A stretch of 64,000 bases of DNA from an uncultured Gammaproteobacteria bacterium (lineage in GTDB: Bacteria > Patescibacteriota > Microgenomatia > UBA10105 > UBA927): the NCBI GenBank assembly GCA_964349125.1, contig CAYGFH010000001.1, positions 708,801-772,800 of the forward strand. Direction: 5' to 3'. Positions 6,916-56,741 of the stretch are shown here, one piece after another. Positions within the stretch are counted from its first letter, which is position 1. Each line of letters starts with the position of its first letter. The notes under the pieces were generated by a model. The model did no database searches and was not told the origin of the DNA. It worked only from the letters and a program-made list of their open reading frames with translations. The position numbers were made by a program, and so were the translations under genes.

Positions 6916-6958
6916 TGATTCATGAGAGATATACTTGTACTATTTTCTACCACAGCTG

Positions 6959-8107: not shown

Positions 8108-8119
8108 GCGTGAATTGCT

Positions 8120-10461: not shown

Positions 10462-10462
10462 T

Positions 10463-11878: not shown

Positions 11879-11965
11879 TACCTATCCGGAGTGTCTCACC
11901 TCAAAATCACTCAACTTAACATATAGGATGTGATCGTATTTTCATACTTCGAGATAGATTAAATC

Positions 11966-14326: not shown

Positions 14327-14341
14327 ACATGAATGGAAAAA

Positions 14342-15463
14342 TCATCCAAGTAAAAAACCATGATTAAGTTTTTCCTTCATATTGTTCCAAATAGAGTACA
14401 CGGTCTCTAATTTTTTTGGAACTTCTTTTGAGGCGATAAAAAAGGTACAGTATTTCTTACAAGCCGGATAAAAATCACCTCTATCAAGCTTTTCTCTGAA
14501 GTCCTTATATTTTTTTGTATTCCAAATTGAGCGTATGCCCTTCTTCTTGATATTCAATCCCAGGTGGAAGTCTTCTTGGAGTTGGGACCCGTAACCACAT
14601 GGTTTGATATCTCCATCCGGGCTAATATCCATACTGAATTGCACGAGATCACAATGTCGGCTTTCCCAATAGAGTGGATCTGGGTTCACAAAGTTGAATT
14701 TTGGATGAGCCTTATACACACGAATAGTATTATCTATATTATTCTCAAGTTGGGGATGCTTTGAGGTTATTTTTTTGGCCTGAAGCAACATGTTTATTGC
14801 TTCAAGTCGTTCTTCGTTATTCAGTGCTAACTTGCTCTGCTGTCTGAGTGTTAAATCGTACGGAGACAACGGACCAAAAAATACCTCATCTACTCCCAAT
14901 GATATCCCCAATTCCACGAACTGTACGATTTCCTTATAATTTCCCTTTTGGATGCACAAGGATATTCCGATTTTTGGTGAGAGCCTCTTTATTCTATGAT
15001 TTACTAAATAACGAATACTATTGAGAACTTGGGTATAGCTATCCACGCCATTTATTTCCGTATATACTTTCTGTGTTGCCCCATTAACAGATATATATAA
15101 CGCATCCCAATTCATTGCAATTAGCTTATCCGAAAGTTCCGGTGTCAGTCGTGTTCCATTAGTTATGACATGCCCCTCAATATTTCTCTTTTTTATGGTC
15201 TGAAGAAGAATATCTATTTTTGGAAACAGCAGTGGCTCTCCCCCTCCACATAATACGACTCTCTCAACGGATGCAGGTAGGGTTTTTATAATGCGTAGAT
15301 AGTCATCAAGCTGTAGGTCAGTTGTGCTAAACGCTTTTGTCAATTTTTGACGCATTTGCGGAGTCAAATGCTCTCTCCAACACATGGGGCACGCATGATT
15401 ACATATATACCCCATTGGGAATATACGTACTTGTTTGAGTGTATCCATATCTGTATGCAGCAA
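14342..15463 (-). CDS. radical SAM protein with C-terminal SPASM-like Cys cluster
   Basis: CNHACPMC (Cx3Cx2C) near the N-terminus. Additional Cys residues in the C-terminal region (CGYGSQ, CKKYC). Confidence 0.8.
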   Translation of the reverse strand: MLHTDMDTLKQVRIFPMGYICNHACPMCWREHLTPQMRQKLTKAFSTTDLQLDDYLRIIKTLPASVERVVLCGGGEPLLFPKIDILLQTIKKRNIEGHVITNGTRLTPELSDKLIAMNWDALYISVNGATQKVYTEINGVDSYTQVLNSIRYLVNHRIKRLSPKIGISLCIQKGNYKEIVQFVELGISLGVDEVFFGPLSPYDLTLRQQSKLALNNEERLEAINMLLQAKKITSKHPQLENNIDNTIRVYKAHPKFNFVNPDPLYWESRHCDLVQFSMDISPDGDIKPCGYGSQLQEDFHLGLNIKKKGIRSIWNTKKYKDFREKLDRGDFYPACKKYCTFFIASKEVPKKLETVYSIWNNMKEKLNHGFLLG

Positions 15464-15777
15464 TTATTAATATGACATGCTGTATCTAAATAAGCCGCAT
15501 GATCTATCTATGCTAATCATATTATATGAAAGAGCAATCGATAACAATCCCTGAAGTTTGCTTGGCACCTACAAGACGAAAATGGAATGAATAGAAGCGG
15601 TATCAGAAGTAAATTGGTACAATTTTTCAGGCGTGCCACGATCTCAAAATTGGCAGACTGAAGAACATCGCCTGCTAGTAATTGATATGCATGTGGATGT
15701 GTTAATAGAAAACATTCTCGGCGAGTATTGCAATACACTCCCGTAGAGTAAATAAACGCGATTATACTCGCAGTGTA

Positions 15778-16824
15778 TCAAGCTAAGCAGTCTCTATACA
15801 ATTTATGAATCTGCTTTTCGGAAAATAACGTACGTGCTGCCTGTCGCGCTTTCTTGGCTATCGCCAAATATGTTCGTTTGTTTCTCTTGAGCGCAAGAAT
15901 TGCATCAGAAATGCGTTCAGGATTATTCTCCGTAAGAATACCTCCCGAAGAACGAATAAATGCAGATAACGTTCCCATATCCGATGCAATGATTGGCTTT
16001 CCATACGCGAGATAATCTAACAATTTCATCGAATGAAAATAAAACGGGAAGTGAGACGGTTTATGGTACAGCGCAAGACAGACGTGTGATTCTTTCACAT
16101 AATTCATATATTGCGCATAAGGTATTGGGTTTAGATGAAGTATATTCGAACTGTTATGCCGGGAATAATAATTATTCTTACCAAAAAGTAAAAATAACAC
16201 GTGCCTATCTTTAGCCTCAATAATTTTAGCGACTTTATATATAATATCTGTTGCCTGCCAAGGGAGACTTGCATCCCCTCCCCAGATGACAACAAATGAA
16301 TTTTTTTTGAATGGAAACCGAAATGATTTACTTGTTGCCTGCTTATGAGAACCTGGTACAAAGTTTGGAATAATTTGCCACTTTTTTATTTGTATTTTTC
16401 TTTTAGAGTATTCGTACAGCTCTCCAGAAATAAAAATACATACATCAACAAAATAGGATAATATTCTCCTGCGAAGCGCATTTTTCCAAACAAAAAAATA
16501 GTTCTCTATAGCCGTGTTTACTTCAAGTCTTTCTTCGGGAAACCCATGAATCTCCCATATAAAATGATGTTTTGGCAGGATGCATTTCCAAAAGGTATAT
16601 TTATCTAATATGCATGAGCCATCAATGCGTATGACTATGTGGTTGAATTTATTTTTTATTCGAAGCAGACTTATTACAGTATGTACGTATGTCTTCTTGG
16701 TATGCTCGAAAAGCAACACCTTAAATCCCGCATTCTCCATGGCTGCCATACGCCTTTGGATGTTAATATCTATAGCGGTATGAGTGCCTAGGGTAGGTAC
16801 TATATATGCAATGGTTTCCCCCAT
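15778..16824 (-). CDS. glycosyltransferase (GT-B, GT1/GT4-like)
   Basis: C-terminal DYLAYGKPIIASDMGTLSAFIRSSGGIL resembles a GT-B donor-binding region. The N-terminal domain is divergent. Confidence 0.55.
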   Translation of the reverse strand: MGETIAYIVPTLGTHTAIDINIQRRMAAMENAGFKVLLFEHTKKTYVHTVISLLRIKNKFNHIVIRIDGSCILDKYTFWKCILPKHHFIWEIHGFPEERLEVNTAIENYFFVWKNALRRRILSYFVDVCIFISGELYEYSKRKIQIKKWQIIPNFVPGSHKQATSKSFRFPFKKNSFVVIWGGDASLPWQATDIIYKVAKIIEAKDRHVLFLLFGKNNYYSRHNSSNILHLNPIPYAQYMNYVKESHVCLALYHKPSHFPFYFHSMKLLDYLAYGKPIIASDMGTLSAFIRSSGGILTENNPERISDAILALKRNKRTYLAIAKKARQAARTLFSEKQIHKLYRDCLA

Positions 16825-16842
16825 GAGTTTTTGCTTAGAATT

Positions 16843-17577
16843 CTAGATATTGGATATCAATACATTCCTATCTCGTATACTGGTTGTCTTTCCATCGTAC
16901 GCGATATGACCATCACGAAGCACTATACCTCTAGAACATTGTTTGCAAAGGAGTATTGGATCGTGATAAACGGTGAGAATAGTTTTTTTTTGAAACTCGA
17001 CTGAATTTAATGTCTCTCTCGCTTTCTTTGTGAATTGACTGTCCCCGAACGATAGTCCTTCATCAAGCAGTAGTATGTCAGGATTACAATGTATTGCTAC
17101 GGCAAATCCTAAACGCAATTTCATCCCGGCTGAATATGTATATAAGGGTACATCTATGAATTGTCGAATACCCGCATACCGTACAATATTTGCAAGTTGA
17201 GATTCGATATATGACTTTCGAGCACCAAGTAATAAGCCATTCAAAATGATGTTTTGCAACCCGGTCAAATCCGGATGAAACCCTGCTCCAATATCTATAA
17301 TCGAGATGATACTTCCAGTAGTTGTTAATTTTCCGGATGTAGGGGTTGTGATACCTGCAATAATTTTTAGTAAAGTGGTTTTTCCACTCCCATTCTTACC
17401 TATTATGCCAACTTTCTCTCCCCGATATATCGTGAGATTAATTTTCTTCTGAGCCCAGAAAATTTCCCTTTTTTTGGTAAGTAACCTGTCAATAAATATT
17501 GGCCGTTCATGATTAATCGCATATGACTTATGAATATCTCTCAGCTGAATTACCCGATCTTTCATACTTATATCCAA
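16843..17577 (-). CDS. polysaccharide ABC exporter ATP-binding protein (Wzt/TagH/KpsT-like)
   Basis: Walker A GKNGSGKTT, signature YSAGMKLRLGF and Walker B LLLDEGLS. Confidence 0.85.
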   Translation of the reverse strand: MDISMKDRVIQLRDIHKSYAINHERPIFIDRLLTKKREIFWAQKKINLTIYRGEKVGIIGKNGSGKTTLLKIIAGITTPTSGKLTTTGSIISIIDIGAGFHPDLTGLQNIILNGLLLGARKSYIESQLANIVRYAGIRQFIDVPLYTYSAGMKLRLGFAVAIHCNPDILLLDEGLSFGDSQFTKKARETLNSVEFQKKTILTVYHDPILLCKQCSRGIVLRDGHIAYDGKTTSIRDRNVLISNI

Positions 17578-18395
17578 TCATCAAATGTTTTGCTTTCAAT
17601 AAAAAATACACGTATACCAATAATAAATAGTATGAAAATCAGAAGCACATTCATGGTGAGCAGACTAGGATCTATAGTATTGTGTCCAAACAGAGCTACC
17701 TGCATAAGTTGTAATATTCCAGCCAACGGATTGAAGTTCCAAAGCCATCGTTTATCCATGGGCATCTGGTTAAGCGTGTAAATTATCGGGGTAGCGTAAA
17801 ACCAAAGTATAAGCACCGCCTGGGTAAGAAAATTAACATCTCTATATCTCACGTTACATGCTGAAAGCAGTAAACCTAATCCTATCGTAAATACCGTTAG
17901 TAAACTAATCGCAATGATCATAATAGGTACTGTATATACGGTTGCGGTCCCCAGAAAGTATACGGGTATGCTAAATAGCAAAATAGCCACAGCAAAGTGA
18001 ATGAAATTAGATAAAATTATAGAAAGCGGAATAATAAAATGTGAGAACTGTGCCTTTTTGATTAGTGATCGCTCAGATACTATGGATGGTGTAACGCGGG
18101 AAAGTGATAGCGAGAAAAAATTCCATACGAGCAAACTAATAAAAAGATAATGATAATAATTGTCAATTGGTGCTTTCATAAAAAATCTAAAAATATAGCC
18201 AATAACAATCATCTGAATAATAGGATTTGCGACCAGCCATAAGAAACCAAACACGGTATATTTATATCGGGTACGTAATTCTTTCTCGGTCATTGATATG
18301 AGAAGCTCTACAAAATGGGGATTATATTTCAACATGGGAGCATTATACAGGAATATATAAAATCTGCTAAGTATATTACTATGTATGTGGTTCAA
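17568..18395 (-). CDS. ABC-2 type polysaccharide exporter permease (Wzm/TagG-like)
   Basis: 6-TM ABC-2 permease architecture. Overlaps the ATPase gene by 10 nt. Confidence 0.8.
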   Translation of the reverse strand: MNHIHSNILSRFYIFLYNAPMLKYNPHFVELLISMTEKELRTRYKYTVFGFLWLVANPIIQMIVIGYIFRFFMKAPIDNYYHYLFISLLVWNFFSLSLSRVTPSIVSERSLIKKAQFSHFIIPLSIILSNFIHFAVAILLFSIPVYFLGTATVYTVPIMIIAISLLTVFTIGLGLLLSACNVRYRDVNFLTQAVLILWFYATPIIYTLNQMPMDKRWLWNFNPLAGILQLMQVALFGHNTIDPSLLTMNVLLIFILFIIGIRVFFIESKTFDDWI

Positions 18396-18658
18396 ACCCC
18401 GAGGACTTTATCATAACACTACTACTGATTTCACCACATGGGCATCACATCTGAAGGCATGCTACTGACAGATGCAATGAACGTAAATTGATGCCCTTCA
18501 TATGTCACATGAGAACCCCTACTCAGGGTTTGTGTTCCGGATATATATAACGGGTTTCGTCAAAAAGACGTATGCGTACATAATGCACGTTATATGAAAA
18601 AGCTGGCATGGTAGTATATGTTGCGTATAAAATGATATGATGTCGGGATTGAAATCCT

Positions 18659-19279
18659 ATGGTATATCGATTTTTTTATAGCGTTGCCATCTTTGGTTTA
18701 ATACTTCTCGCAGCTCCTCTATTGGTATGTATATCAATATGCGTATATTTCTTTTCCGGAATACCTATATTGTTCACGCAAAAGCGGGTTGGTAAACTCG
18801 GTACAATTTTCTATATTTACAAATTTCGCACAATGGCTATCAATAGCGACATTAAAAAGAAAGCACTGTTGGATTTAAATGAAGCTGACGGTCCGGTTTT
18901 TAAAATACGCAACGATCCGCGGTATACACGCTTCGGTAAGTTTCTGGCCCATACGGGGCTGGATGAATTACCACAATTGTGGAACGTCCTCAAGGGTGAT
19001 ATGGCCCTGATTGGTCCCCGACCTCTCCCAGTTTCTGAGGCGAAAAAACTTGTCTCCTGGCAAAAAAAGAGACACAATATAAAGCCAGGCATTATATCTC
19101 CCTGGATTTTAGAGGGATATCATACCATGAGTTTTGATGCCTGGATGAAAAGCGATATAGAATATATGAAGCGTAAATCTTTCGCGACAGATTGGGTGCT
19201 ATGTATACAAGCATGTAAATTTCTCGGTATGTTATTTTTCAAGGAAATAGGGCTATATGTAAGGGCAAAGAGTCACTAA
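18659..19279 (+). CDS. polyprenyl-phosphate sugar-1-phosphate transferase (Bac_transf; WbaP/WcaJ/EpsL-like initiating enzyme)
   Basis: KRVGKLGTIFYIYKFRTM...DGPVFKIRNDPRYTRFGKFLAHTGLDELPQLWNVLKGDMALIGPRP is the canonical bacterial sugar transferase motif set. Confidence 0.85.
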   Translation: MVYRFFYSVAIFGLILLAAPLLVCISICVYFFSGIPILFTQKRVGKLGTIFYIYKFRTMAINSDIKKKALLDLNEADGPVFKIRNDPRYTRFGKFLAHTGLDELPQLWNVLKGDMALIGPRPLPVSEAKKLVSWQKKRHNIKPGIISPWILEGYHTMSFDAWMKSDIEYMKRKSFATDWVLCIQACKFLGMLFFKEIGLYVRAKSH

Positions 19280-22200
19280 AATGTCTGCGCGCCTTTAAAG
19301 GTTGTAAACTTCTTCATTCTTAATAGTTTTCGTAATTGTTTAATTGATGCATTAATTGATTTTTTGTCCGCGCCCTTCATTTTTAAGGTATTCATCAGAA
19401 GTTCGACATATTCTTTTAGATATGCCTGATCGTGTTTTTTATTTAATTTCCCATTTTTTTGTACGCGTGAGGTATATGAAATTGTAATATCATCATCAAT
19501 ACTTTTTGTGACAGGATTCATCGTTGTGATCCTATATGAAAATTCATGCACCATCGGAATCCTTTTGTTATTTTTTGACGTTGCACCAAGTACAACCCTT
19601 TTTACGGTCAAAAGTATATTGGGTAAGTCTGAAAGTATAATCCGTTCGGTTTTCTCTGATTTAATGTACTCACCAATACGTATTCGTTGTATTCCTCCTA
19701 TTTCATGTATCTCTGGGGCGAGGCTTACGAGTGACGTTATTTTTTTGGGAATTGGTAGCGTGATTATTTTCGGCTTTGAAGTATTTTGAATCGCGGCATG
19801 TAACCGTTCCCACGCTGGTATGGTCCTATTCAACCGTACTGATGGAGGCTCGTTTACTTCTCCTATCGCGTCAATTTTCAATTTATTGAGATCACGCGCC
19901 AGAGGTGAACTTCGCTGAAATGTTACAAGCTCAGATGCTAGTTTGCGAACATGTGACAGGTCACCCCCGATTTTTCTAAGCTCCTGATCAATCGTTGTGA
20001 TCGATTTTAGCTTAGCTTCGGCGTGCGCAGTTGATTGTATGATAGATGAGTGTAAATCAAGAAATTTCTCTACGTACGCGGGAGTGAACAACAGATGATC
20101 ATCGATTGTTACGACTTTATCTTCTTTAATAACGATCTGTTTCCCTATAGCTTCTTTAATACTATGGGTAAGAAATGTTCTGATAGTGTCTTCGTACCAG
20201 ATTTGCAGCCGTCTGGAAGCAGTCAGTTCAAATTGTCTAGCATGCATTTTTTCTATCAGACTGAAATCGTATGGAATTGATGTTTTGGAAGGAATTGCTT
20301 CCATCTCTTCTTTAAAGGTCGGATACATACTAATGAGCGCATGATCAGCAAGGCCTACGTGTCCACCATGCTTATACGTAATCCACTCAGCGCTTCCGGG
20401 GTGACCCGCCCGTTTGGCTCGTTGCAATACCTGTATCAGAACATCTTTGGCGTGTAAAGGTCCCCATGCCACTACTCTCAATCCACCCGACATATCGGAT
20501 TCTTGGGAAGTCTTTATGTCAATCATTCGTCCCGCTTTTGGATTTGCGATTGTTATATGATGTGCGAGACCTGCATTTTTATATATTTCTTTTTCTTCCT
20601 CTATCGTAGACTTTGATGTAATGGTAGAAATAACAACATTGCTATGTTCTGGCAACGTCGCAAGGAGTGCCTCTTGTATGTCTTCTACCTCGTGATCATT
20701 GTCTGTAACTATCAGATGCGGTCTGGGGTTTTCTGTCAGCTGTCTGAGTGTTTCTATTGCATCATCCTGAGACTCTTCTACGGCATGGTCTGGGATTGGC
20801 ACAGGTTTACCGATCCATCGCTCAGAGTTCACTATCGGTTTTTTTAGAATTTCTTTAATTTCTTCTTCTATTCCATCAGTAGTCATAGTGAGTATGGCGT
20901 ATTGCTTTTCACCATACACAGACTGTAGAAATGACCAATGCCCGATAGAAGCCTGTGCGATGTCTCCCCCACCCCGAAGTGAACACACTCCTTGCGCGAC
21001 ATCCACAGCGACATCCAATAGATCCTGATATCTATGTGAAGTTAGCTGTCTTCCAGTATGTCTATCAATAACGTGTACTGTGTTATTTGCAGCTGCATAC
21101 TCAGTTCCATCTTTCATCGGTAGGGCTTGCATCCATGCCTGAGCATAAAAATTTATGGGATAATCTTTCGCAGGTAATTTTGCGTAGGATTGTATGAGTT
21201 TTATCGCAGATTTATGCATGTCTTGCGTTGACATACGTAAATGAACTGGAAGCGACTCCTGGATTGTGCGTAATCTATCAACAAGCGCTGCATGAAATTC
21301 GCTGGGAAGTCGGCCGGTTTCCTGAATTTTTTGTAAGCCCCGTTTAAATTGCCTTTCGTATTTTCTGATAGAGTCATCATTCACCTCATCGTTAAATGTA
21401 TAAAAACCGTTTTGATTGATGATATCGCCATTTTTTACTAGCCGTTTGCACACATGTTCAGCAACAATCATTGAAATCCAGTCTGGAAGATATCCTTCCA
21501 CCGCACTGGAATTTGGAGCCTCAAGCACATTCACGGTATCAGTTCTCCATTGGAGATCGCCTTCATCGGCTATAGCCTCAATTCTTCCGGTAAAAAGCTC
21601 AGGGTGTTCTTTTTTTAGATAGGCAAATTTAAAGTCTCCATCCGTCCCGATTGCTATAGCAGGCGCCTCAAGTTGTGCGGACGGCAAAAGCGATTCTCTG
21701 GCCCTTGCGTATGCATTCGCGCGATCATAAGCTGATATTTTCAGCTCTATCTTGTGAAGGAGTGCTGATCGATTAGGTGTTGGCGGCAGTTGTGAAAGGA
21801 ATGATCTTTGCGCCGTGAGTTTATTATAGAGATGTGTAGATGAAATTTTTGCGTCCTGTTCACTGAACACAAACACTGGCAGGCTCAACTGTTCTGCCAT
21901 TTTTTTGATTTGCTCCGAATCCCGTTCTCGTGCAAATTCGTCGATCACATAATTATGAACCTGCACATGCTTCAATAGTACTTTCGCAATACTTGCTAGT
22001 ACCGCATCCGGATTGCTTTTGCCCTGGCCGCTATCCACCCGTGTTGAATGTGAGGAAAACAATGAGATGATCGCATCTATTTGTTTCGGGTTAATCCCGA
22101 CGGTTTCTGCCGTGCCGTTTTTTGTATGTTCCATCGATTCATAAATACTCTTCGGTGGAAATAACGTAAGCTCTCCTAATGCAATAATGCCGCCAAAAGC

Positions 22201-43552: not shown

Positions 43553-45727
43553 CTAATTTTTTACACCTGGCCATGGTGTGATAATAAGAGGCATTCGATC
43601 CCAGCGTGGGAGTTGTTGGTAAATTTTTTCCGTCACAAATGGCACAAACGGATGGAGAAGCGTCAATATTGTTTTATATACATGCAGTAGGACAGTAAGT
43701 GCCTGTACGTCGCCATTTTTAAAGCGTTCCTTATTTTTTTCCAAGTGCACGTCTGCAAGACGGTGCCACGCAAAGTCATAGAGTGCCTTTGCCGCATCCG
43801 ATAGGCGATACGATTCCATACTCTTGGTGACCTTCGCAGTCAACATATTGAGTTCTGTGATAATACGTTTATCGTGTTGATTTTCGAGCGTGGCATGGAA
43901 ATTTTCTGTATAGTCAGCAATTTTGACACCAGCCGGTGTATTCATTTCGATAAACCGTCCGATATTCCAGAGTTTGTTGGCAAAATTACGCATGCCGCGA
44001 ATTTTGTCCTCAGACAGAGACTGATCGTTACCTGCAGCCGTACCAAACACAAGTGAAAATCGAAGTGCATCAGCTCCGTAGAGATCTATCATCTTGAGCG
44101 GGTTGATTACATTCCCTTTGCTCTTGCTCATTTTTTGCCCTTTGGCATCGCGAACCAACCCATGCAAATATACTGTATGAAACGGTACGTCTCCCGTCAT
44201 GTAGAGCCCCAGCATGGCCATTCGGCACACCCACCAGGGGAGAATGTCATATCCTGTCTCCATAACGCTTGTAGGGTAAAACGTGGAGAAATCCGACGGC
44301 TGGTTAGCCTTGAGTGTTGCAAAGGGCCATTGCCCAGATGAAAACCAGGTATCAAACGTATCTGCATCCTGCTCTATATTGGTGCTTTTACAGTCAATGC
44401 ATGAGGTAGGTACGTCGCCATTCGTAATCGTCCACGCTGTACAATCTGCACATTTCCAGGCCGGTATGCGTATTCCCCACACTATCTGTCGGCTGATATT
44501 CCAATCATGAAAATTTGTGAGCCATTGGACACCAAGTTTCTCAAATCTTTTTGGCACAAAAGTTATTTTTTTGGCTTTAACAGCTTTTTTTGCAGCATCG
44601 GTTAATGGCTTGACCTTAACAAACCATTGTTCCATAGGCAAAGGCTCAATGATCGTATTGGATTTATAACACACGCCTACTCTATGTGAGTATTGCTCTT
44701 CGACTTTTTCAAGAAGACCGTCTGCTGCAAGATCTGCAACCATGAGCGCTCGTGCTTCTGCGACCTTCTTACCATGATATGCGATTGCTCTGGCCATGTA
44801 CTTTGTATCTACATCTTTCTTTGAAAGGAACCACGAAAAATCCATTCGTCCGTTAAAATCAATGATCGGGGTGACCGGGAGGTTAAATTTTTTCCCGAGC
44901 TCAAAATCGTGCGCATCGTGAGCAGGGGTGACTTTCATAATGCCCGTACCGAATTCGGGATCTACGTCAGGGTCAGGTATCACGGTCATAGATATAGGTC
45001 CGAGAAGTCCCATGATTTCAAGTGTTTGACCGATATACTTCTTATACCGTTTGTCCTTTGGATTGACGGCCAATGCTGTGTCTCTGAATTTCGTCTCAGG
45101 GCGAACGGTTGCAATGGTAAACGGGCCATACTTCAGGTAATACATCGGATCAATACGATCCTCATATTTAACTTCCAGATCAGAAAATCCGGTACCGCAC
45201 TTCGTACAGTAATTTACGAGCCTCACGCCGCGATATATCAGGTTATCGTCGTACAGTTTTTTGAACGTGCCATACACGATCTTGACGATCTTAGGATCGA
45301 GCGTGAAGGTATTGCGGCTCCAATCAAGAGAAAATCCTAGTCTGCGAAGCTGATTTTCCATGGTTGTCCTGTTTGCATGGACAAAATCCCATATATTTTT
45401 ATATAGCGTATCGCGATCAAAATCAAACCTGCTTTTCCCTTCTTTTGCCAGGTGTTTTTCATACACATACTGAGTCTCAAACCCTGCGTGGTCCGCGCCG
45501 GGAAGCCAGAGTGTCGGATCGCCCTTCATACGGTGATACCGAACGAGTATATCCTCTACAACATACAGTGCATGTCCCAGATGTAAATCTGCATTTGCGT
45601 TTGGTGGGGGGAGTAAGATGGTAAACGGAGTCTTCTCAGAATTAATCTGAGGCTTGAAATATCCTCCCTGTTCCCAGAGTGTATACAACGCCTGTTCCGA
45701 TACTTTCGGATCGTATGCCTTATCCAT
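43553..45727 (-). CDS. valS: valine--tRNA ligase (short form lacking long C-terminal coiled coil)
   Basis: PPPNANADLHLGHAL (HIGH), KMSKSKGN (KMSKS) and WNISRQIVWGIRIPAW match ValRS. Start chosen at the internal Met. The ORF track extends to 45763. Confidence 0.85.
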   Translation of the reverse strand: MDKAYDPKVSEQALYTLWEQGGYFKPQINSEKTPFTILLPPPNANADLHLGHALYVVEDILVRYHRMKGDPTLWLPGADHAGFETQYVYEKHLAKEGKSRFDFDRDTLYKNIWDFVHANRTTMENQLRRLGFSLDWSRNTFTLDPKIVKIVYGTFKKLYDDNLIYRGVRLVNYCTKCGTGFSDLEVKYEDRIDPMYYLKYGPFTIATVRPETKFRDTALAVNPKDKRYKKYIGQTLEIMGLLGPISMTVIPDPDVDPEFGTGIMKVTPAHDAHDFELGKKFNLPVTPIIDFNGRMDFSWFLSKKDVDTKYMARAIAYHGKKVAEARALMVADLAADGLLEKVEEQYSHRVGVCYKSNTIIEPLPMEQWFVKVKPLTDAAKKAVKAKKITFVPKRFEKLGVQWLTNFHDWNISRQIVWGIRIPAWKCADCTAWTITNGDVPTSCIDCKSTNIEQDADTFDTWFSSGQWPFATLKANQPSDFSTFYPTSVMETGYDILPWWVCRMAMLGLYMTGDVPFHTVYLHGLVRDAKGQKMSKSKGNVINPLKMIDLYGADALRFSLVFGTAAGNDQSLSEDKIRGMRNFANKLWNIGRFIEMNTPAGVKIADYTENFHATLENQHDKRIITELNMLTAKVTKSMESYRLSDAAKALYDFAWHRLADVHLEKNKERFKNGDVQALTVLLHVYKTILTLLHPFVPFVTEKIYQQLPRWDRMPLIITPWPGVKN

Positions 45728-45771
45728 GGGTATATTGTATAGCAGGGGAGAGCGTGGGAGCAAGCTGAAGA

Positions 45772-46632
45772 TTACAGCTCATCGAGCTTTACATTTTCAG
45801 TTTTAACATCCTTCACCAGCTCCAAATATCGCTCCGTTGTGGATAGCCTCTTGTGTCCGACCAGTTTAGACAGGGTCGTAATGGCAGTTCCCGCCATTAA
45901 ATGATGGGCGATAAATGTGTGCCTGAGATCGTTTACCTTAGCTCCTTCAATACCCGCAATTCTGAAATATCTGTCTATTGCGGTTCTGATGTTACGTATA
46001 AGCAGAGGTCGTCCTGTTTTGGTAATAAACAACGCTTTGTTTGGTGTGTTTGCTGCACGTTGTTCTACGTATTTGTCTAGTGCGTCCTTTGCTGCCTTAT
46101 TCAGTGGAACCATGCGCTCTGCGTGTCCTTCCTGTGCCGCTATGTGAATTTCCGTTGCCTTAAGATCATCGAGTGTCAGATTTGCTAGCTCTCCAATTCG
46201 AATTCCGGTTTGGAGAAACAGCTCAACGATAGCATAAATACGAACGTCGCCACGGCAAGTATCCCGAAGCGCCCGGTATTCAATTTTTGAGAGAATTCGA
46301 GGTGGTTTTACTTCATACTTAGGATGCGCAATCTCAATGGCAGGGTCAGATGTGATAATTCCCGAGGCCTTTAGAAATCGGAAAAAGGTTTTAATGGAAT
46401 TGATTTTTCTGGATATAGACTTCGGGGTATAGTTATCTCCGGCCAACTTTTTTAGGAACGCATCGATCTCATCGCGAGTGACTTCATTGACCATTTTCTT
46501 ACCCATGTTACTGAGGTACATGGTCACTTGTTCAATATCTTTGCCGTATGCTACGATGGTTGCACGGGCGCGCTTTCTGGAACCAAGATACTCGGTGAAT
46601 TGTGTGTGTGCGTCTTTTAGAGTTACTGACAT
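45772..46632 (-). CDS. tyrosine site-specific recombinase, XerC/XerD-like
   Basis: C-terminal catalytic region LRHTFIAHHLMAGTAITTLSKLVGHKRLSTTERY (RHR...Y). N-terminal SAM-like domain. Confidence 0.8.
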   Translation of the reverse strand: MSVTLKDAHTQFTEYLGSRKRARATIVAYGKDIEQVTMYLSNMGKKMVNEVTRDEIDAFLKKLAGDNYTPKSISRKINSIKTFFRFLKASGIITSDPAIEIAHPKYEVKPPRILSKIEYRALRDTCRGDVRIYAIVELFLQTGIRIGELANLTLDDLKATEIHIAAQEGHAERMVPLNKAAKDALDKYVEQRAANTPNKALFITKTGRPLLIRNIRTAIDRYFRIAGIEGAKVNDLRHTFIAHHLMAGTAITTLSKLVGHKRLSTTERYLELVKDVKTENVKLDEL

Positions 46633-47127: not shown

Positions 47128-47202
47128 TGGTGCCAGCGGCAGGAATCGGACCTGCTACCCATGCCTTATGAAGACACTGCTCTACCAATGAGCTACGCTG
47201 GC
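47128..47202 (-). tRNA. tRNA with CAT anticodon (elongator Met or Ile2/lysidine type; not initiator-like)
   Basis: Minus-strand fold GCCAGCG-TA-GCTC/ATTGGTA/GAGC-A-GTGTC/TTCATAA/GGCAT-GGGTA-GCAGG/TCCGATT/CCTGC-CGCTGGC-A-CCA. Stems score 7/7, 4/4 and 5/5, and the anticodon stem has 2 G-U pairs. CCA is encoded. Position 55 is C rather than U. Confidence 0.8.
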
Positions 47203-47930: not shown

Positions 47931-49235
47931 ATGAACACAAAACAGTCAACACAGGTCTCAGACATGCCAAAGGCATATTTGAATATCGCCTACTATCTCA
48001 ATCGATATTTGGGCGAACTGCCCCCGCCTCCGGTTGATCCGACGGGTACACCAATTGGCCCAGACGCGCTTGCGCCGTTATTTGCGATGGAGTTAATCAA
48101 GCAGGAGGTTTCTCTGGAAAAAGATATTCCGATACCAGAACCAGTACTTGAGGCATACAGACAGTATAGGATGACCCCTCTTATACGAGTGAGAAGATTG
48201 GAACGGTATCTTGACACACCAGCCCATATCTATGTGAAGTATGAGGGAGTGTCACCTGTGGGAAGTCACAAATTTAATACTGCACTACCACAGGCATATT
48301 ACAACAAGATGGAAGGAGTAAAAGGGCTTGCTACCGAAACCGGAGCAGGTCAGTGGGGGAGCGCACTCTCTTTGGCATGCCGCATGATGGATTTGCCCTG
48401 TCAGGTGTTTATGGTCAAAAGTTCCTTTGATCAGAAACCATACAGAAAAACGATAATGGAACTATACGGAGGCTCTGTTGTGGCAAGCCCCTCGACACTG
48501 ACAGAAGCAGGTAGGGGATTTTTGGAATCGGAGGCCAACAGAACGGGTAGTCTGGGGATGGCAATATCCGAAGCTATCGAATTTGCCGTCAAGAACGGGT
48601 ATCACTATGCCCTCGGTAGCGTCTTGAATCATGTCTTGCTGCATCAAACAATCATTGGATTGGAAGCAAAAACGCAGATGGAAAAACAAGATACCTACCC
48701 GGATATCGTCATCGGTTGTTGTGGGGGAGGGAGTAATCTCGCAGGTCTTAGCTTTCCATTTCTGGCCGACAAGCTTTCCGGTAAGACAAAACACCTGCGT
48801 GTTATTGCTGTAGAGCCCATAGCGTGTCCTTCATTGACTCGTGGTGAATACCGCTATGACAGTGGGGATACGGCCGGCATGACTCCCAGAATGATGATGT
48901 ATACGATGGGTAGTGATTTTGTGCCGAACGCCATACACGCGGGAGGGCTGCGGTATCACGGAGACGCACCCCTTATTAGCTTTATGTACCATAAAAAACT
49001 CATTGAGGCAGTTTCATATGGGCAATTGGATGTATTTGAATCCGCCGCATTGTTTGCCAGATGCGAAGGGATCATACCTGCTCCGGAATCCGCACATGCG
49101 ATACAACATGCGATTGTCGAAGCCATTCGTGCAAAAGAAGAGGGAAAGAAGAAAGTAATACTCGTCAATCTCTCTGGCCACGGCCTGTTGGATCTGGGAG
49201 CGTATGACGAGTATTTGAGGGGAAGCATGGCATAA
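47931..49235 (+). CDS. trpB: tryptophan synthase beta chain, stand-alone TrpB2 type
   Basis: The PLP-Lys region YEGVSPVGSHKFNTALPQAYY, GCCGGGSNLAG, and a length of about 434 aa with an N-terminal extension are typical of TrpB2. The start is at ATG(47931), 5 nt after a GAAAGGA SD. The ORF track begins at an upstream in-frame Met. Confidence 0.9.
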   Translation: MNTKQSTQVSDMPKAYLNIAYYLNRYLGELPPPPVDPTGTPIGPDALAPLFAMELIKQEVSLEKDIPIPEPVLEAYRQYRMTPLIRVRRLERYLDTPAHIYVKYEGVSPVGSHKFNTALPQAYYNKMEGVKGLATETGAGQWGSALSLACRMMDLPCQVFMVKSSFDQKPYRKTIMELYGGSVVASPSTLTEAGRGFLESEANRTGSLGMAISEAIEFAVKNGYHYALGSVLNHVLLHQTIIGLEAKTQMEKQDTYPDIVIGCCGGGSNLAGLSFPFLADKLSGKTKHLRVIAVEPIACPSLTRGEYRYDSGDTAGMTPRMMMYTMGSDFVPNAIHAGGLRYHGDAPLISFMYHKKLIEAVSYGQLDVFESAALFARCEGIIPAPESAHAIQHAIVEAIRAKEEGKKKVILVNLSGHGLLDLGAYDEYLRGSMA

Positions 49236-49354: not shown

Positions 49355-49681
49355 ATGGTTCGAAGAGTACTAAGCTTTGGTATTGTACTGGTAAGTGGCG
49401 TGATCGTCGGTATTGGCTTGATAGCAGAGTGGCATGCACGGGTTATTTTGCCGCTATCAATCGTGTGCGTAGGTGCTTTGCTCGTGGCATGTATTCCGGC
49501 ACGCCCTGCCAAGAAGATATGTCTGCGGTGCGGAGGATCGGGATATGTTCCGGTTGTAGGCGCATGGGCGACTGAGTACGATGCGGATACTTGTCCACGG
49601 TGTGGAGGTTCCGGTCGCCTGCTGCAGCAGTCCAGTCCACTTGAAGAGGATGGGTACTGTATGACTGATACAGACATCTAG
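49355..49681 (+). CDS. small 2-TM membrane protein with DnaJ-type CxxCxGxG zinc-finger pair
   Basis: Two hydrophobic helices, then CLRCGGSGY...CPRCGGSGR. The opposite-strand ORFs here are composition shadows in a GC-richer patch. Confidence 0.5.
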   Translation: MVRRVLSFGIVLVSGVIVGIGLIAEWHARVILPLSIVCVGALLVACIPARPAKKICLRCGGSGYVPVVGAWATEYDADTCPRCGGSGRLLQQSSPLEEDGYCMTDTDI

Positions 49682-49890
49682 TCTTTCCTCAATAGTTCGC
49701 ATTCGCATCTCTGCGACAGTCTTCTTACAAAAGAAGCATTCCGTACGGAAATAGTTGTCTCCTGATGTTTTTATGATAAAAATCGTACACACGACGCGTG
49801 TACACATTTTAGCAGTAATTACATCAGGGGGCACGTTTCTAAGACACATAGTTGGTTATAAATATAAATTCATTTACAATAAGGAGACCT

Positions 49891-51753
49891 ATGAATCTAA
49901 AAGATACGATTGAAAAAATTTTGACTGAAAAGAACGTTGAATACCGGTTTATTCCGCTTCCTGCGGAATTACCCGCAGATGTCCCATCCCACGCTGCGTT
50001 TCACGGTATTTCGCTTGCGAATGCAATGACAACCATGCTCTATCGGACAGAAAAAGGCATTATCGCCGCAGTGAAACGGGCGGATACTCAGGTTGATCAA
50101 GAAGCGTTAAAGGCGATTGCGGGTGTGTCGACCCTGACATTTGCATCAAAAGAAGACCTGAAAGCAATAGGGACTGAGGTTGGGCTGGTACCATTTCTTG
50201 GACTGAACATCCCATTTTACATCGATGACAACGTGATGGGTGTAGGTAAAATTTACGGAACAAGTGGGGATGCATTGATGGGTATGTCTATGAATGCGAC
50301 AGATCTCCCGCTGGTAAACGCAGGCAAAGTTTCGAACTTTGCGCGACTAGAACAGCTTGCGAGCGTTCCGATGGGAAAGCGTTTTTTATCTGGCATAACT
50401 CCCAGCGGTGACGGATCACTTCACATAGGGAATTACCTGGGCGCAGTGAAACAGTTTATTGAGCTATCAAAACAGAATGAAACATTCCTGATGGTAGCCG
50501 ATCTCCACGGGCTAACGACCATACAGGACAAAAAACACCTGACTCGGAACATAGAGACACTAGTGCTTGAAGAGTTATCCCTGCTTCTTGGATTTTTGGG
50601 CGAGGAGAAATTTAATTCCATTACGTTCTTCAGACAATCTGATGTGACCATGCATACCGAGTTACAGTCGATACTAAACAATGTAACGCCCCTTGGTTTA
50701 CTGAAACGTGCGCATGCGTATAAAGATAAACTCGCGAAAGATGTGATGGAAGACGATGTGAACTTAGGTCTATTTAATTATCCGATCCTCATGGCGTCTG
50801 ACATTTTGTTGTATAAACCTGATCTTGTCCCTGTAGGAAAAGATCAGAAACAACATATTGAAATTACCAGAGATGTGGCGGACCGGTTTAATCGGATTTA
50901 TAAGAAAAATGTGTTGAAATTGCCAGACCCGTTTATTCCCGAAGCTGTCTCAGTTGTATTAGGAACTGACGGAAAGCGAAAAATGAGTAAGTCCCTGGGT
51001 AATCTGATCAGCATATTTGACGAGGAATCAGTCATAAAGAAACAGGTATACGGTGCCTATACTGATCCGACCCGCGTGCACGCTACGGATAAGGGTCATA
51101 TAGAAGGAAACATGGTGTTTTCCTATTTACACTATTTCGGGGAAACCAGCCGTGTTGAAGAGCTCAAAGTTCAGTACAAAGAGGGAGCCGTGTCAGATGT
51201 CGCAGTAAAAGAGTATCTTTTTGAATGTTTGAAGCGAACGTTTGCTCCAGCAAGGGAAGCTTACGTTCAGCTAAAGGCAAATCCAAAACGAGTGAAAGCT
51301 ATTTTGAAAATCGGGCAGGAAAAGGCGCTTTCAGTCGCAACGCAAACCCTGAAGGAGGTTCGTGATGCTATAGGTATCACGACGTCATATTCATTCTTTG
51401 AGTACCCGAAAGTGAGTGGAGGCGACACGGTATCCATCGATGACTTCGCGAAAATTCGGTTAACCGTTGGTCATGTTGTCAGCGCAACGCATAAGGAGGG
51501 GAGTGACAAGCTGATCCGTTTGGTTGTCGATGTCGGAGAGCCGGAAAAACGGATTATATTTACCGGGGTACGAACATTCGGGTATACGCATGAAGATTTT
51601 TCGGGTAAGCAGTTTTTCTTTATCACCAATCTGGCCCCGCGAAAAATGCTTGATGAGTATTCGGAGGGCATGATACTCGCAGTAGATGGAGCAGACGGTA
51701 GGCCACAATTTATTTCTGCTGACGGAATGCCGGTGGGCTCCCAAATTCGATAA
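49891..51753 (+). CDS. trpS: tryptophan--tRNA ligase with N-terminal YbaK/ProX-like deacylase domain and C-terminal Trbp111/EMAP-like tRNA-binding domain
   Basis: Catalytic core RFLSGITPSGDGSLHIGNYLGAV (TrpRS HIGH region), VPVGKDQKQHIEITRDVADRFN and RKMSKSLGN (KMSKS). N-terminal 150 aa: AMTTMLYRTEKGIIAAV...IGTEVGLVPFLG (YbaK GxxxGxxPxG-type). C-terminal about 110 aa: DFAKIRLTVGHVVSATHKEGSDKLIRLVVDVGE...GMILAV (Myf/Trbp111 OB fold). Start at ATG(49891), 5 nt after AAGGAG. The ORF track starts at 49852. Confidence 0.9.
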   Translation: MNLKDTIEKILTEKNVEYRFIPLPAELPADVPSHAAFHGISLANAMTTMLYRTEKGIIAAVKRADTQVDQEALKAIAGVSTLTFASKEDLKAIGTEVGLVPFLGLNIPFYIDDNVMGVGKIYGTSGDALMGMSMNATDLPLVNAGKVSNFARLEQLASVPMGKRFLSGITPSGDGSLHIGNYLGAVKQFIELSKQNETFLMVADLHGLTTIQDKKHLTRNIETLVLEELSLLLGFLGEEKFNSITFFRQSDVTMHTELQSILNNVTPLGLLKRAHAYKDKLAKDVMEDDVNLGLFNYPILMASDILLYKPDLVPVGKDQKQHIEITRDVADRFNRIYKKNVLKLPDPFIPEAVSVVLGTDGKRKMSKSLGNLISIFDEESVIKKQVYGAYTDPTRVHATDKGHIEGNMVFSYLHYFGETSRVEELKVQYKEGAVSDVAVKEYLFECLKRTFAPAREAYVQLKANPKRVKAILKIGQEKALSVATQTLKEVRDAIGITTSYSFFEYPKVSGGDTVSIDDFAKIRLTVGHVVSATHKEGSDKLIRLVVDVGEPEKRIIFTGVRTFGYTHEDFSGKQFFFITNLAPRKMLDEYSEGMILAVDGADGRPQFISADGMPVGSQIR

Positions 51754-51828: not shown

Positions 51829-52224
51829 TTAGACTGCAGGTTGCAATAGCTCCTTTACCTTATTCACTACCTGATCAGGTGTATGATCACTCTTTATGAG
51901 GTATCCACGGGCGCCGAGCGAAATTGCATTTGCGATGATTGTTTCCTGTCCGAGGTTAGATAGCACCAGAATTGCTTCATTTGGCGCAATGGGCGGTGTC
52001 TCATTTTTAAGTTTTTCGAGAATCTTAATGCCATCCATTTTAGGGAGCATAATATCAAGAAGCACAATATTATATCCGCCAGCATGCATTTTCTGATACC
52101 CCTCTTCTCCATCCACAGCGTGTTCCACATCGTATCCTTCGTCCTGCAATATATCGATATAAAGCTCTCGTATATATTGATCGTCTTCGACGACTAACAC
52201 TTTTTTGATCCCTACAGTATTCAT
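51829..52224 (-). CDS. single-domain response regulator (REC only, CheY-like)
   Basis: KVLVVEDDQYIRELY...DGEEG...IVLLDIMLPKMDG with the phospho-acceptor Asp in LLDIMLP. Confidence 0.85.
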   Translation of the reverse strand: MNTVGIKKVLVVEDDQYIRELYIDILQDEGYDVEHAVDGEEGYQKMHAGGYNIVLLDIMLPKMDGIKILEKLKNETPPIAPNEAILVLSNLGQETIIANAISLGARGYLIKSDHTPDQVVNKVKELLQPAV

Positions 52225-52238
52225 ACTAAAAGTGTACT

Positions 52239-53696
52239 CTATATCACTTTTGGTTGTAAAGCATTTGCGTCTGAATTAACCGGAAGTGTGAATGTAAACG
52301 TGGATCCTTTTCCAAGTTCAGATTGAACATCTATAGACCCTTTATGGAGTTCCACATATTGTTTGGATATAAATAAACCCAAGCCACTGCTTTCTGCAGT
52401 GACCGTTACCAGTGAATTTTCCAATCGTCCGAATTTTTTAAATAATTTCGGCATATCATCGGCTGCAATGCCACGACCGGTATCAGCGATAGAGAAGCGT
52501 ATGAGATTGCCCTCCTGAGCCACTGTAAGCGTGATGGTGGCTCCTTTTTGCGAGTATTTGATACTGTTACCGATAAGGTTCTCTAGGACCTGTATGATCT
52601 TTTCATGGTCTATCTCGATGAGTGGTAGCACATCAGGTTTATGCACAATAAACGTGACTTGGGCGTCAGCAACCTTTGCGGCAAATTCAGTCTGTATATC
52701 ATCGCATAATACCAACGGATTTACCTGTGTCTTATGTAATGTCACGCGTCCGGATTCAATGCGCGATACATCCAACATTTCATTAACCAAATGTATGAGG
52801 CGTTCTGTTGATTTAAATACTCTGTCCAGATAGATCCGTGCTTTCGGCGTAATTTCTCCTGCTTTGTTGTTTAGTACCATCCATGCATAACTTTTTATTG
52901 CGGTCATGGGGGTTCTCAGTTCATGTGAGGCAACAGATACGAATTCATCCTTCAATTTATCCAGTATCCGTAATTGTTCGTTGGCATATTGCACCTGATT
53001 GTTCGTTTCTTGTATATGCTCCAACAGTTCAGAGCGATCAATAGCCAGTGAAATAGCTCCGATGAGTTCGTCGAGCGTTTCTTTTTCTCCACGAGACAGG
53101 TCGTTGGCTTTTTTTGCAAGTCCGAGGCAGAGAAGCCCAATCTGCCTTGCTCCAATACGCAGCGGATAGATGATGACGGTCTTAATGTGCAATTGATTCT
53201 CTATATGGTCGGCTATTTCCTGATTGATAAGCGGTGTAAAAATATCCAGCAAATTTCCCGTTACCGTCTGTTCGGGACTATTGAGTGATGTAACCAGTAA
53301 ATTTTCATTATCCGAAAGTGGGATTGCAGCACTATCAGAGGAAATATGAAGCGCATCAGACAATGCTGAATTCGCTGTCAACTGTGCAATCGCACGAAAG
53401 CGAAGCGCATGTTTTTGATCGTCTATAAGCGCTAAAATGGCGAGAGGAAATTTTAGTTCAGACACAATTGCATCTGCTATCTTTTGGCTAGCCTCATGTG
53501 TTGAGAGAGAATTAACGGTAATTGTTGAAATAGTGCGAAGCACACTAAGCGTTTTATTTTTTATGGAAAGCTCCAGATTTTGCTTGTACATCTCCTCCGT
53601 AATTTTTGACAAATCTTCAGAAGATTCATGGAGCACTGATTTGGGTGATTGCTTGGATGATCCGACAAATACTGGTGAATTGGCAGGCATATACAA
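52239..53696 (-). CDS. cytoplasmic sensor histidine kinase (GAF-like N-domain + HisKA + HATPase_c)
   Basis: H-box VSVASHELRTPMTAIKSY. N/G boxes LENLIGNSIKYS and DTGRGIAADDMPKLFKKF...GLGL. No TM helices. Confidence 0.85.
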   Translation of the reverse strand: MYMPANSPVFVGSSKQSPKSVLHESSEDLSKITEEMYKQNLELSIKNKTLSVLRTISTITVNSLSTHEASQKIADAIVSELKFPLAILALIDDQKHALRFRAIAQLTANSALSDALHISSDSAAIPLSDNENLLVTSLNSPEQTVTGNLLDIFTPLINQEIADHIENQLHIKTVIIYPLRIGARQIGLLCLGLAKKANDLSRGEKETLDELIGAISLAIDRSELLEHIQETNNQVQYANEQLRILDKLKDEFVSVASHELRTPMTAIKSYAWMVLNNKAGEITPKARIYLDRVFKSTERLIHLVNEMLDVSRIESGRVTLHKTQVNPLVLCDDIQTEFAAKVADAQVTFIVHKPDVLPLIEIDHEKIIQVLENLIGNSIKYSQKGATITLTVAQEGNLIRFSIADTGRGIAADDMPKLFKKFGRLENSLVTVTAESSGLGLFISKQYVELHKGSIDVQSELGKGSTFTFTLPVNSDANALQPKVI

Positions 53697-55835: not shown

Positions 55836-56741
55836 ATGTTACCGGTATATCCCAGACTGAAACCTCTTGAGTTAACTGATAAAAACGATATTGAGAAGCT
55901 AGTTGCATTGTATCCTCCCTACTCGGACTTTAATTTTGTAAGTTTATGGAGTTGGAATATTCACAATATGGCCAAAGTGGGCACACTCAACGGGAATCTG
56001 GTTGTGCTTTTTCAGGATTACATCACAAATGAAGCGTTCTTTACATTTATCGGTGAGCGACATGTTCAGGAAACAATCGATACACTGCTATCCAATGCGA
56101 GCGCATGTAACGTTATAGATGAATTGCGGTTAATTCCAGAGCATACAATACTGCAACTTCCTGCCGGTGCGTATACGGTGATAGAGGATACTGATAATCA
56201 TGATTACGTCGTTTCAATCCAAGATGTGTCTGAAATGAAAGGTACGGCATATTTATCAAAACGTAATCATGTAAATCGGTTTACCCGTGAATTCGGTCAC
56301 ATTTCCCGTTTGCGCCATATAGATATACGCTCCCGACAACAGCAGGAGCAAATCCTCAGCCTGTTTGAAACGTGGCAGAAAGCCAGAGGAAAACTTGATA
56401 TGGAAACTATAAATGAATTGAAAGCGATACGGCGCTTATTTCTAGGAGCTCATATTTTTGATCTCCACTCAATGGGGTTGTTTATCGAGTCAGAGTTGGT
56501 TGCATTCGCCATTCATGAAAAAGTTCAACAACAGTATGTTGTATTCCACTTTGAAAAGGCCGACACAAATTACATAGGCATATTTGAATATTGTAAACGA
56601 CATGTCTCGACCGCACTTTTACACGACGGGTCGGTCTATATGAATTTGGAACAAGACTTGGGAATAGAAGGACTTCGAAAAGCAAAACAATCGTACAGGC
56701 CAGTTCATTTTTTGAAAAAGTATACAGTGAGGAAGGAATAA
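55836..56741 (+). CDS. stand-alone DUF2156 (MprF C-terminal-like, aminoacyl-tRNA-dependent transferase fold) protein
   Basis: N-terminal YPPYSDFNFVSLWSWN and C-terminal GIEGLRKAKQSYRPVHFLKKY resemble the GNAT-like aa-tRNA transferase domain of MprF/FemX-type enzymes. No membrane domain. Confidence 0.6.
   Translation: MLPVYPRLKPLELTDKNDIEKLVALYPPYSDFNFVSLWSWNIHNMAKVGTLNGNLVVLFQDYITNEAFFTFIGERHVQETIDTLLSNASACNVIDELRLIPEHTILQLPAGAYTVIEDTDNHDYVVSIQDVSEMKGTAYLSKRNHVNRFTREFGHISRLRHIDIRSRQQQEQILSLFETWQKARGKLDMETINELKAIRRLFLGAHIFDLHSMGLFIESELVAFAIHEKVQQQYVVFHFEKADTNYIGIFEYCKRHVSTALLHDGSVYMNLEQDLGIEGLRKAKQSYRPVHFLKKYTVRKE

Follow-up and report, generated by a model that had tools for sequence, protein, structure and literature searches.

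A lysine-less YbaK/INS-fold domain on a patescibacterial tryptophanyl-tRNA synthetase and the diversified clade to which it belongs

We describe a gene on the forward strand (positions 49891-51753) of a 64,000-nucleotide stretch of contig CAYGFH010000001.1 (contig positions 708,801 to 772,800; hereafter the window), the predicted product of which is a tryptophanyl-tRNA synthetase (TrpRS) with an N-terminal domain of the YbaK/INS superfamily that lacks the catalytic Lys of that superfamily. Our analysis uncovered this domain to be a member of a large, diversified Lys-less INS/YbaK clade that is tied specifically to TrpRS and tyrosyl-tRNA synthetases (TyrRS). These two class Ic synthetases are the textbook cases of enzymes without editing domains.

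An INS-fold domain with an altered active site

The N-terminal domain (N-domain) comprises residues 1-155 of the protein (49891-50355, forward strand). An AlphaFold2 (AF2) model of residues 1-158 has a mean predicted local distance difference test (pLDDT) value of 94.6 and a predicted template modelling score (pTM) of 0.88. In Foldseek searches it matches, over the whole domain and with template modelling (TM) scores of 0.82-0.84, ProXp-x (2cx5/2z0k), the YbaK proteins of Escherichia coli (2dxa) and Haemophilus influenzae (1dbx), and APE2540 (1wdv). Also recovered were the INS domains of prolyl-tRNA synthetase (ProRS; 2j3l and 5znj) and the YbaK-fold non-translation proteins SadB (9qzk) and 3mem. 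The closest solved relatives, to which the N-domain is just 16-20% identical, are all aminoacyl-tRNA deacylases. At the sequence level, the Pfam tRNA_edit model (PF04073) matches residues 34-133 with 48.1 bits (gathering threshold 25.5), and the domain belongs to this superfamily by both profile and fold. It is not a YbaK proper, given that the YbaK_EbsC model TIGR00011 scores 14.3 bits, far below its cut-off of 153.

The catalytic Lys of the superfamily, i.e., the K of the V-K-T-L signature, corresponds to K279 in the E. coli INS, K46 in YbaK and K45 in ProXp-ala. In pairwise (phmmer), profile and family alignments including 1wdv, 2cx5 and the ProRS INS, this column is occupied in the window protein by Thr47 (AM-T-TML; codon at 50029-50031, forward strand). 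The loop that follows reads G94-TEV-G98-LV-P101-FL-G104, wherein G98-L-V-P-F102 (50182-50196, forward strand) is the counterpart of the GxxxP loop: its first Gly is kept (97%), and its terminal Pro, which is found in 94% of the Lys-containing relatives, is Phe102. The domain thus has the profile and fold of the INS superfamily and departs from it in both the catalytic Lys and the GxxxP loop, and, because of these two replacements, the canonical YbaK-type mechanism cannot be assumed for it from its sequence. In characterized members, the Lys positions A76 of the tRNA (PMC12021450). An earlier reading made from the sequence only had recognized a YbaK/ProX-type pattern here; its fold, HMM (hidden Markov model) match and Gly loop stand, and the “KTL-like Lys region” that it invoked does not. 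It had also named loss of the conserved Lys as grounds for abandoning the assignment; the residue is indeed missing, both from the window protein and from all 69 N-domain homologs considered below, and the HMM and fold matches hold regardless.

A diversified Lys-less clade

Of the 120 best matches to the window TrpRS, which constitute our homolog set, the N-domain is present in 69, and in 69/69 of these T, V, A, S or P stands in the Lys column. Three paralogous subtypes can be distinguished by their motifs: subtype A, to which the window protein belongs (HAAFHGI...AMxTILY...KRADTQID...GxExGLVPYLGL); subtype B, in which the GxxxP Pro is likewise lost (SAATLLMKADD...RRGDTKLD...GVPSGAASVYIP...INAGSGS); and subtype C, which retains GxxxP as G-Y-V-S-P and yet has no Lys (GVSTLIF...RRDDHQL...GCEVGYVSPYNP...GTGSPEYDLKI). 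Some proteins of 780-800 residues have two N-domains in tandem, and the partners always differ in subtype (A+C or B+C).

An exhaustive profile search against 1.84 billion representative sequences returned 5337 matches, the top 150 of which were aligned to the profile. In these the Lys column is distributed as K 80, P 36, S 14, A 11, G 3 and others; all matches better than ~1e-25 are without Lys, and the K-[TAS]-L proteins (80/150) rank only lower. The Lys and the loop Pro are lost in concert (94% P in the Lys-containing relatives versus L/P/V in the Lys-less ones), along with the gain of a GGxG motif (75/95/92%) in place of the F-[GNS]-x-G of the Lys-containing relatives. In profile-to-structure alignments this segment coincides with the “GAN...H” wall of the INS active site. 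The most conserved clade-specific positions, namely the loop Gly (97%) and the GGxG residues (75-95%), surround the former active site, and the pocket substitutions all go to smaller residues. Many of the Lys-less matches are free-standing proteins of 150 residues annotated as YbaK/EbsC, such as those from Aneurinibacillus, Fontibacillus and Terriglobales; free-standing versions occur both in cultured Firmicutes and in Acidobacteria. These coordinated changes, which extend over the whole clade inclusive of the free-standing proteins, suggest a remodelled rather than a dead site. Across 44 subtype-A proteins, pairs are on average 59% identical in the N-domain, compared with 74% in the TrpRS core and 72% in the C-terminal OB fold (see below), which argues that the N-domain is not decaying but is under purifying selection. 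As judged from these sequences, the Lys-less state defines a distinct clade and is not a one-off decay, and this clade may be equivalent to one of the named but uncharacterized clusters, ProXp-ST2/7/8/9.

The three-domain architecture is common in public genomes of Patescibacteria (the candidate phyla radiation, CPR), with Gottesmanbacteria, Roizmanbacteria, Dojkabacteria and unclassified Patescibacteria among the named carriers, and is annotated there only as “tryptophan--tRNA ligase”. It has no name of its own and has apparently gone unstudied.

Recurrent fusions to class Ic synthetases

The Lys-less domain is combined with these synthetases in several distinct arrangements: N-terminal fusions to TrpRS occur both with and without the OB fold; one TrpRS (P0149) bears the domain at its C-terminus; and in P0195 it is found at the N-terminus of a bacterial-type TyrRS (TIGR00234, 291 bits). 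Archaeal-type TyrRS proteins (P0222 and P0233) have a Lys-containing domain at the N- or the C-terminus. In an Aneurinibacillus locus (L111), a free-standing Lys-less gene (5001-5447) is situated ~350 nucleotides from degraded TrpRS fragments (5801-6303, reverse strand), an independent hint that the clade and TrpRS are linked outside the CPR as well. These repeated independent fusions lead us to argue that TrpRS and TyrRS, or their tRNAs, are the partners of this branch of the superfamily.

An optional module

In a tree built from TrpRS core sequences, the various architectures are interspersed, and closely related enzymes differ in the presence of the N-domain: P0021 (subtype A) and P0054 (no N-domain) are 96.9% identical over their common 457 residues, and the TrpRS bodies of P0011 and P0099, and of P0083 (B-like) and P0084, again with and without the domain, are 95.9% and 93.0% identical, respectively. 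The TrpRS proteins without it start precisely at the domain junction, M-KRLLSGITPSGD. As no N-domain remnants were detected 5′ of such genes in the loci examined (L021-L024), its absence is real and not an artefact of gene calling. The loci L108 and L022 illustrate the point: they share upstream DNA, ribosome-binding site and ATG, which are followed either by ~500 nucleotides of N-domain or directly by the core. Thus, with TrpRS bodies 93-97% identical occurring in both states, the N-domain is dispensable for TrpRS function and subject to strain-level turnover. The only close copies of the domain that seemed to stand alone (P0121 and P0123) proved to be pieces of frameshifted fused genes on contigs of ~1.4x coverage, and so do not testify to a split gene.

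The synthetase core and the C-terminal OB fold

The open reading frame that contains the gene spans 49852-51753 (forward strand), with its stop codon at 51751-51753. The ATG at 49891 is the most plausible start because it is preceded by a Shine-Dalgarno sequence, AAGGAG (49881-49886, forward strand), and all full-length homologs begin with MNLKD or MKLKD; the gene boundaries and start proposed from the sequence are upheld by both. One homolog, P0001, is 95% identical and equal in length. The 620-residue product matches three Pfam families, each above its gathering threshold, in agreement with the architecture first proposed for it: beyond PF04073, these are tRNA-synt_1b (residues 164-451, 199.4 bits) and tRNA_bind (PF01588; residues 524-611, 56.5 bits against a gathering threshold of 27).

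Residues 164-496 (50380-51378, forward strand) make up the catalytic core of a bacterial-type TrpRS together with its anticodon-binding helices. The class I TrpRS identity of the core, already evident to the sequence-only reading, is corroborated by TIGR00233 (trpS; 267.4 bits versus a cut-off of 176.75), which aligns residues 162-496 to model positions 2-328 of 328, and by the intact motifs SLHIGNYLG, RKMSKS and VPVGKDQKQH. Among 55 homologs, H178-I179-G180-N181 (HIGN; 50422-50433, forward strand), K364-M-S-K367-S368 (KMSKS; 50980-50994, forward strand) and GKDQ are invariant. A short linker (residues ~155-163; 50353-50379, forward strand; pLDDT ~63 in the full-length AF2 model) connects the N-domain to the first strand of the Rossmann fold. 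The full-length model has confident domains, a pTM of 0.59 and low-confidence linkers (~154-163 and 500-520), which indicates that the domains are flexibly tethered. The gene is predicted to encode a functional-looking bacterial-type TrpRS with two accessory tRNA-handling modules on flexible linkers. HMM and Pfam scans recovered no second TrpRS within the window.

A separate observation concerns the locus L027, where an archaeal/eukaryote-type TrpRS paralog (3373-4464; 363 aa; PRK12285-like, 258 bits) and an unannotated 159-residue open reading frame (4464-4943) lie directly 5′ of a bacterial-type TrpRS with tandem (B+C) N-domains; this organism accordingly carries TrpRS genes of both types side by side.

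The C-terminal domain (residues 524-611; 51460-51723, forward strand) is an oligonucleotide-binding (OB) fold of the MetRS-C/Trbp111 type, as had been surmised: apart from PF01588, it is matched by TIGR00399 (metG_C_term, 84.5 bits), by the methionyl-tRNA synthetase (MetRS) C-domain (phmmer E=2.8e-21) and by Trbp111 (1pyb/8vu0; 1.3e-15), with which it shares NLAPRKM...SEGMILA. In the window protein this fold is attached to a TrpRS instead. When NLAPRKMLDEYSEGMILA is aligned by hand with the Trbp111 segment NLKPRKIFGIESQGMILA, the first residue of the putative Lys/Arg/Ser triad, which Arc1p/MCP1 requires for CCA binding and deacylation, appears to be Ala, as in MetRS-C. The domain most likely raises general tRNA affinity; OB folds of this kind bind the 3′-CCA end of tRNA and, in MCP1/Arc1p, deacylate Ala-tRNA (PMC12021450). 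Of the 120 best homologs, 52 combine a TrpRS with the OB fold but have no N-domain, so that the OB fold is the appendage that this lineage acquired first.

Gene neighborhoods

To survey gene context, we collected relatives' loci by means of the subtype-A alignment, which samples only Gottesmanbacteria-like genomes. A background set was provided by 64 of the 80 loci from a metagenome scan for HIGNYLGA, which are unrelated bacterial TrpRS. The counts for the racemase described next take in only loci with enough upstream sequence.

In L025, which encodes P0021, a 234-residue gene of the Asp/Glu racemase family (3300-4004; TIGR00035, 126.5 bits versus a cut-off of 93.1) overlaps the TrpRS start by 4 nucleotides, and its product retains MACNTAC and LGCTELP, the two catalytic Cys motifs. 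Homologs of it are found directly 5′ of TrpRS in L003, L005, L007, L009, L012, L014, L016, L018, L020, L026 (subtype B; 4258-5004), L038, L040 and L108 (619-1326), and near the TrpRS in L035; in the lineage of the window the racemase gene often overlaps the TrpRS start. Overall, a racemase adjoins TrpRS in 15/29 loci with the N-domain, in 1/13 same-lineage loci without it and in 0/64 of the unrelated bacterial TrpRS loci. In L025 and L021, a pair that is 94% identical, racemase and N-domain fall within one variable block and are either both there or both missing.

Upstream of TrpRS in the window is a TrpB2-type (TrpB-like, pyridoxal phosphate-dependent) gene (47931-49235, forward strand; NF009057 659 bits, TIGR01415 598 bits), confirming a further element of the sequence-only reading. 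It is followed by a gene for a small membrane protein with a CxxC...CxxC pattern (49355-49681, forward strand; a weak match to DnaJ_CXXCXGXG) and then by TrpRS. TrpB2 also adjoins TrpRS, on its 5′ side, in L004, L006, L007 and L016, with the order TrpB2-racemase-TrpRS in L007 and L016; homologs of the CxxC membrane protein precede the racemase in L003, L012 and L014. Loci with the N-domain (5/29) do not have an adjoining TrpB2 gene more often than loci without it (2/13; L036 and L042).

Several other features of the region are recorded for their own sake. A response regulator and histidine kinase pair (51829-53696, reverse strand) is convergent with TrpRS, and such a pair is also directly 3′ of TrpRS in L004, L007, L016, L021, L025 and L026. 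A stand-alone LPG_synthase_C gene (the MprF C-terminal, aminoacyl-tRNA-dependent transferase family; 55836-56741, forward strand), for which no NCBIfam match was obtained at E <= 1e-10, is encoded a few kb 3′ of TrpRS, as it is in L026 (9874-10782). The window ValRS (43553-45763, reverse strand; 736 aa) matches its model at positions 2-697 of 860, and so is without the usual C-terminal coiled-coil tRNA-binding extension. A XerC/D-like tyrosine recombinase (45772-46632, reverse strand) adjoins the sole tRNA gene there, tRNA-Met CAT (47128-47202, reverse strand); as it is syntenic in L006, L014, L016 and L021, it is probably a chromosomal gene and not part of a mobile element. Finally, the G+C content steps from ~0.37-0.39 (1-20000) to ~0.42-0.47 (20001-64000) near 20 kb, a step that either horizontal acquisition of a segment or a change in gene content could explain.

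Functional interpretation

We tentatively favor the interpretation that the N-domain is an accessory cis module that handles the acceptor end of the aminoacyl-tRNA and, using a remodelled active site, hydrolyzes an aberrant product. Its catalytic activity, its action in cis and the identity of its substrate are all things that we infer. On this proposal, the aminoacylated 3′ end of tRNATrp would leave the synthetic site, which is ~10 residues from the N-domain in sequence, and be bound by the N-domain, which would have retained that capacity; the aberrant aminoacyl-tRNA would then be hydrolyzed in cis in the remodelled pocket, with the domain acting as a quality-control add-on that is optional and varies between strains. 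Our foremost candidate for the substrate is D-Trp-tRNATrp, the clearing of which would amount to chiral proofreading: mischarging with D-Tyr and D-Trp has been reported, the racemase is co-transcribed with TrpRS in many relatives, and the pocket substitutions are to smaller residues. The coupling of D-Tyr, D-Trp and D-Asp to their tRNAs is attributed to Soutourina 2000 in PMC4844752. A bolder version of this idea, which we consider unlikely, is that the Lys-less YbaK-fold clade as a whole is an unrecognized aromatic D-aminoacyl-tRNA deacylase that was repeatedly recruited onto class Ic enzymes and that, in Microgenomates, forms with the co-transcribed racemase a cassette gained and lost as a unit.

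Several points weigh against a catalytic cis module directed at D-aminoacyl-tRNA. We know of no D-aminoacyl-tRNA deacylase with a YbaK fold. The two hallmark residues of the INS catalytic site are both missing, and a review states that all characterized INS members use them (PMC11286415); a 2025 paper (PMC12021450) does say that the members use the Lys “with one exception”, which provides a precedent for activity without it. The domain is dispensable, given the 93-97% identical TrpRS bodies with and without it, and the full-length AF2 model (pTM 0.59) yields no confident inter-domain geometry. The racemase, for its part, is not encoded in the 64-kb window nor at the TyrRS fusion locus (P0195-type), and is present beside the N-less TrpRS of L022; its association with the N-domain (Fisher p 0.0135 on a count of 14/28 versus 1/13) is uncorrected for phylogeny or locus sampling; and its substrate could be just D-Glu or D-Asp destined for the cell wall. 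A tblastn search with the E. coli DTD found none in the window or the collected loci, a result that is uninformative as these cover a small fraction of the genomes.

The main rival, which we rate as somewhat doubtful, is that the N-domain is a catalytically dead relic or adaptor, which would tune aminoacylation by binding or chaperoning the tRNA acceptor stem or CCA end, or as a surface for dimerization or other interactions. Such a role would account for the absence of the catalytic Lys in every member of the clade and of the GxxxP Pro in subtypes A and B (subtype C retains GxxxP), for the ease with which the domain is gained and lost between near-identical enzymes, and for the apparently flexible linkers of the model, on a protein that already has another general tRNA-binding appendage. 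YbaK-fold domains in non-translation proteins (e.g., SadB 9qzk and 3mem) are consistent with such repurposing, and there is a precedent in the defunct N-terminal INS-like domain of Saccharomyces cerevisiae ProRS, cited in PMC12021450. However, the most conserved clade-specific residues surround the former active site instead of forming a basic surface of the kind that binds RNA in general; some members are free-standing single domains; and the tandems always mix subtypes (A+C, B+C), a pattern that resembles differing specificities more closely than a gain in affinity. The presence of YbaK-fold domains in signalling proteins (SadB and Maqu_0641), the loss of the A76-positioning Lys and the operon linkage to enzymes of amino acid metabolism (the racemase and TrpB2) could instead point to a sensor, the pocket of which binds a free amino acid or nucleotide (D-/L-Trp or Trp-AMP) and regulates TrpRS allosterically, or hydrolyzes a non-cognate aminoacyl-adenylate prior to transfer, leaving the tRNA untouched. 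We regard this as improbable, since the nearest solved relatives are all aminoacyl-tRNA deacylases, and fusion to tRNA-charging enzymes at either terminus better fits the handling of tRNA ends.

The remaining alternatives retain a conventional editing role. The sequence-only reading had suggested that the domain proofreads, by YbaK-type chemistry in cis, tRNATrp carrying L-Trp analogues made by TrpB2 from modified indoles. Fusion to the cognate synthetase, a Gly-rich pocket that could take bulky side chains and the TrpB2 genes 5′ of TrpRS in the window and the four loci named above all speak for it. But the canonical catalytic residues are missing, the same clade is found on TyrRS, for which TrpB2 is irrelevant, and the TrpB2 counts given above provide no support from gene context; as TrpB2 adjacency does not track the N-domain, we rejected this as the leading model and accord it only a slim chance, scarcely above that of the sensor. 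Slighter still is the likelihood that the domain is a trans-editing factor “parked” on TrpRS, with the latter and its OB fold serving as a platform in a reduced genome for clearing other mischarged tRNAs (Ala-/Cys-tRNAPro or Ser-/Thr-tRNAs). Action in trans on a broad range of tRNAs is indeed found in most INS members (PMC11295145), and free-standing relatives exist; however, the recurrent fusion is specific to class Ic enzymes (TrpRS and TyrRS) in several independent arrangements, and pocket residues that have turned smaller are hardly what selection for small side chains would produce.

Comparison with known systems

The closest parallels are the ProRS INS and the ProXp-ala-ProRS fusions, in which an editing-type domain of the same PF04073 fold is covalently joined to a synthetase. 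There the host is a class II ProRS, whereas here it is a class Ic TrpRS; unlike the ProRS INS, the window domain lies at the N-terminus, is flexibly linked and varies between strains, with the Lys and the GxxxP Pro replaced. Outside ProRS, INS members are described as single-domain proteins in a 2024 review (PMC11295145). With YbaK, ProXp-x and APE2540 the N-domain shares the Thr after the Lys position, the first loop Gly and Asp112, and differs from them in the K to T and P to F replacements and in the GGxG wall that takes the place of F-x-x-G. The S. cerevisiae ProRS also has an INS-fold N-terminal domain described as having lost editing activity (cited in PMC12021450), but the window domain is drawn from a large diversified clade with its own motifs, free-standing members and tandems. 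The TrpRS of Plasmodium falciparum likewise has an appended editing-type domain, an N-terminal AlaX-like one of uncertain catalytic status (PMC3240968), which contradicts the earlier statement that no TrpRS with an appended deacylase-like domain had been described; that domain, however, has the AlaX and not the YbaK fold, and is found on a eukaryotic-type TrpRS in alveolates only. With DTD1, DTD2 and DTD3, which remove D-Tyr or D-Trp from tRNA and thereby clear the best-known mischarging error of class Ic synthetases (PMC4844752), any likeness would be one of functional analogy: the YbaK-fold N-domain has no sequence or fold relationship to DTD1 (with its Gly-cisPro motif), DTD2 or DTD3. In the open-access literature, searches for YbaK together with TrpRS, CPR or Patescibacteria turned up no published description of a YbaK-TrpRS or YbaK-TyrRS fusion.

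Implications

An active clade would extend the known chemistry of the superfamily and add to the synthetases that have quality control in cis, and it may show how bacteria with ultra-small genomes deal with D-amino acids. If the clade is inactive, it would offer a clean natural system for the repurposing of an editing domain. In either case, the near-isogenic pairs with and without the N-domain and the A+C and B+C tandems are ready constructs for biochemistry.

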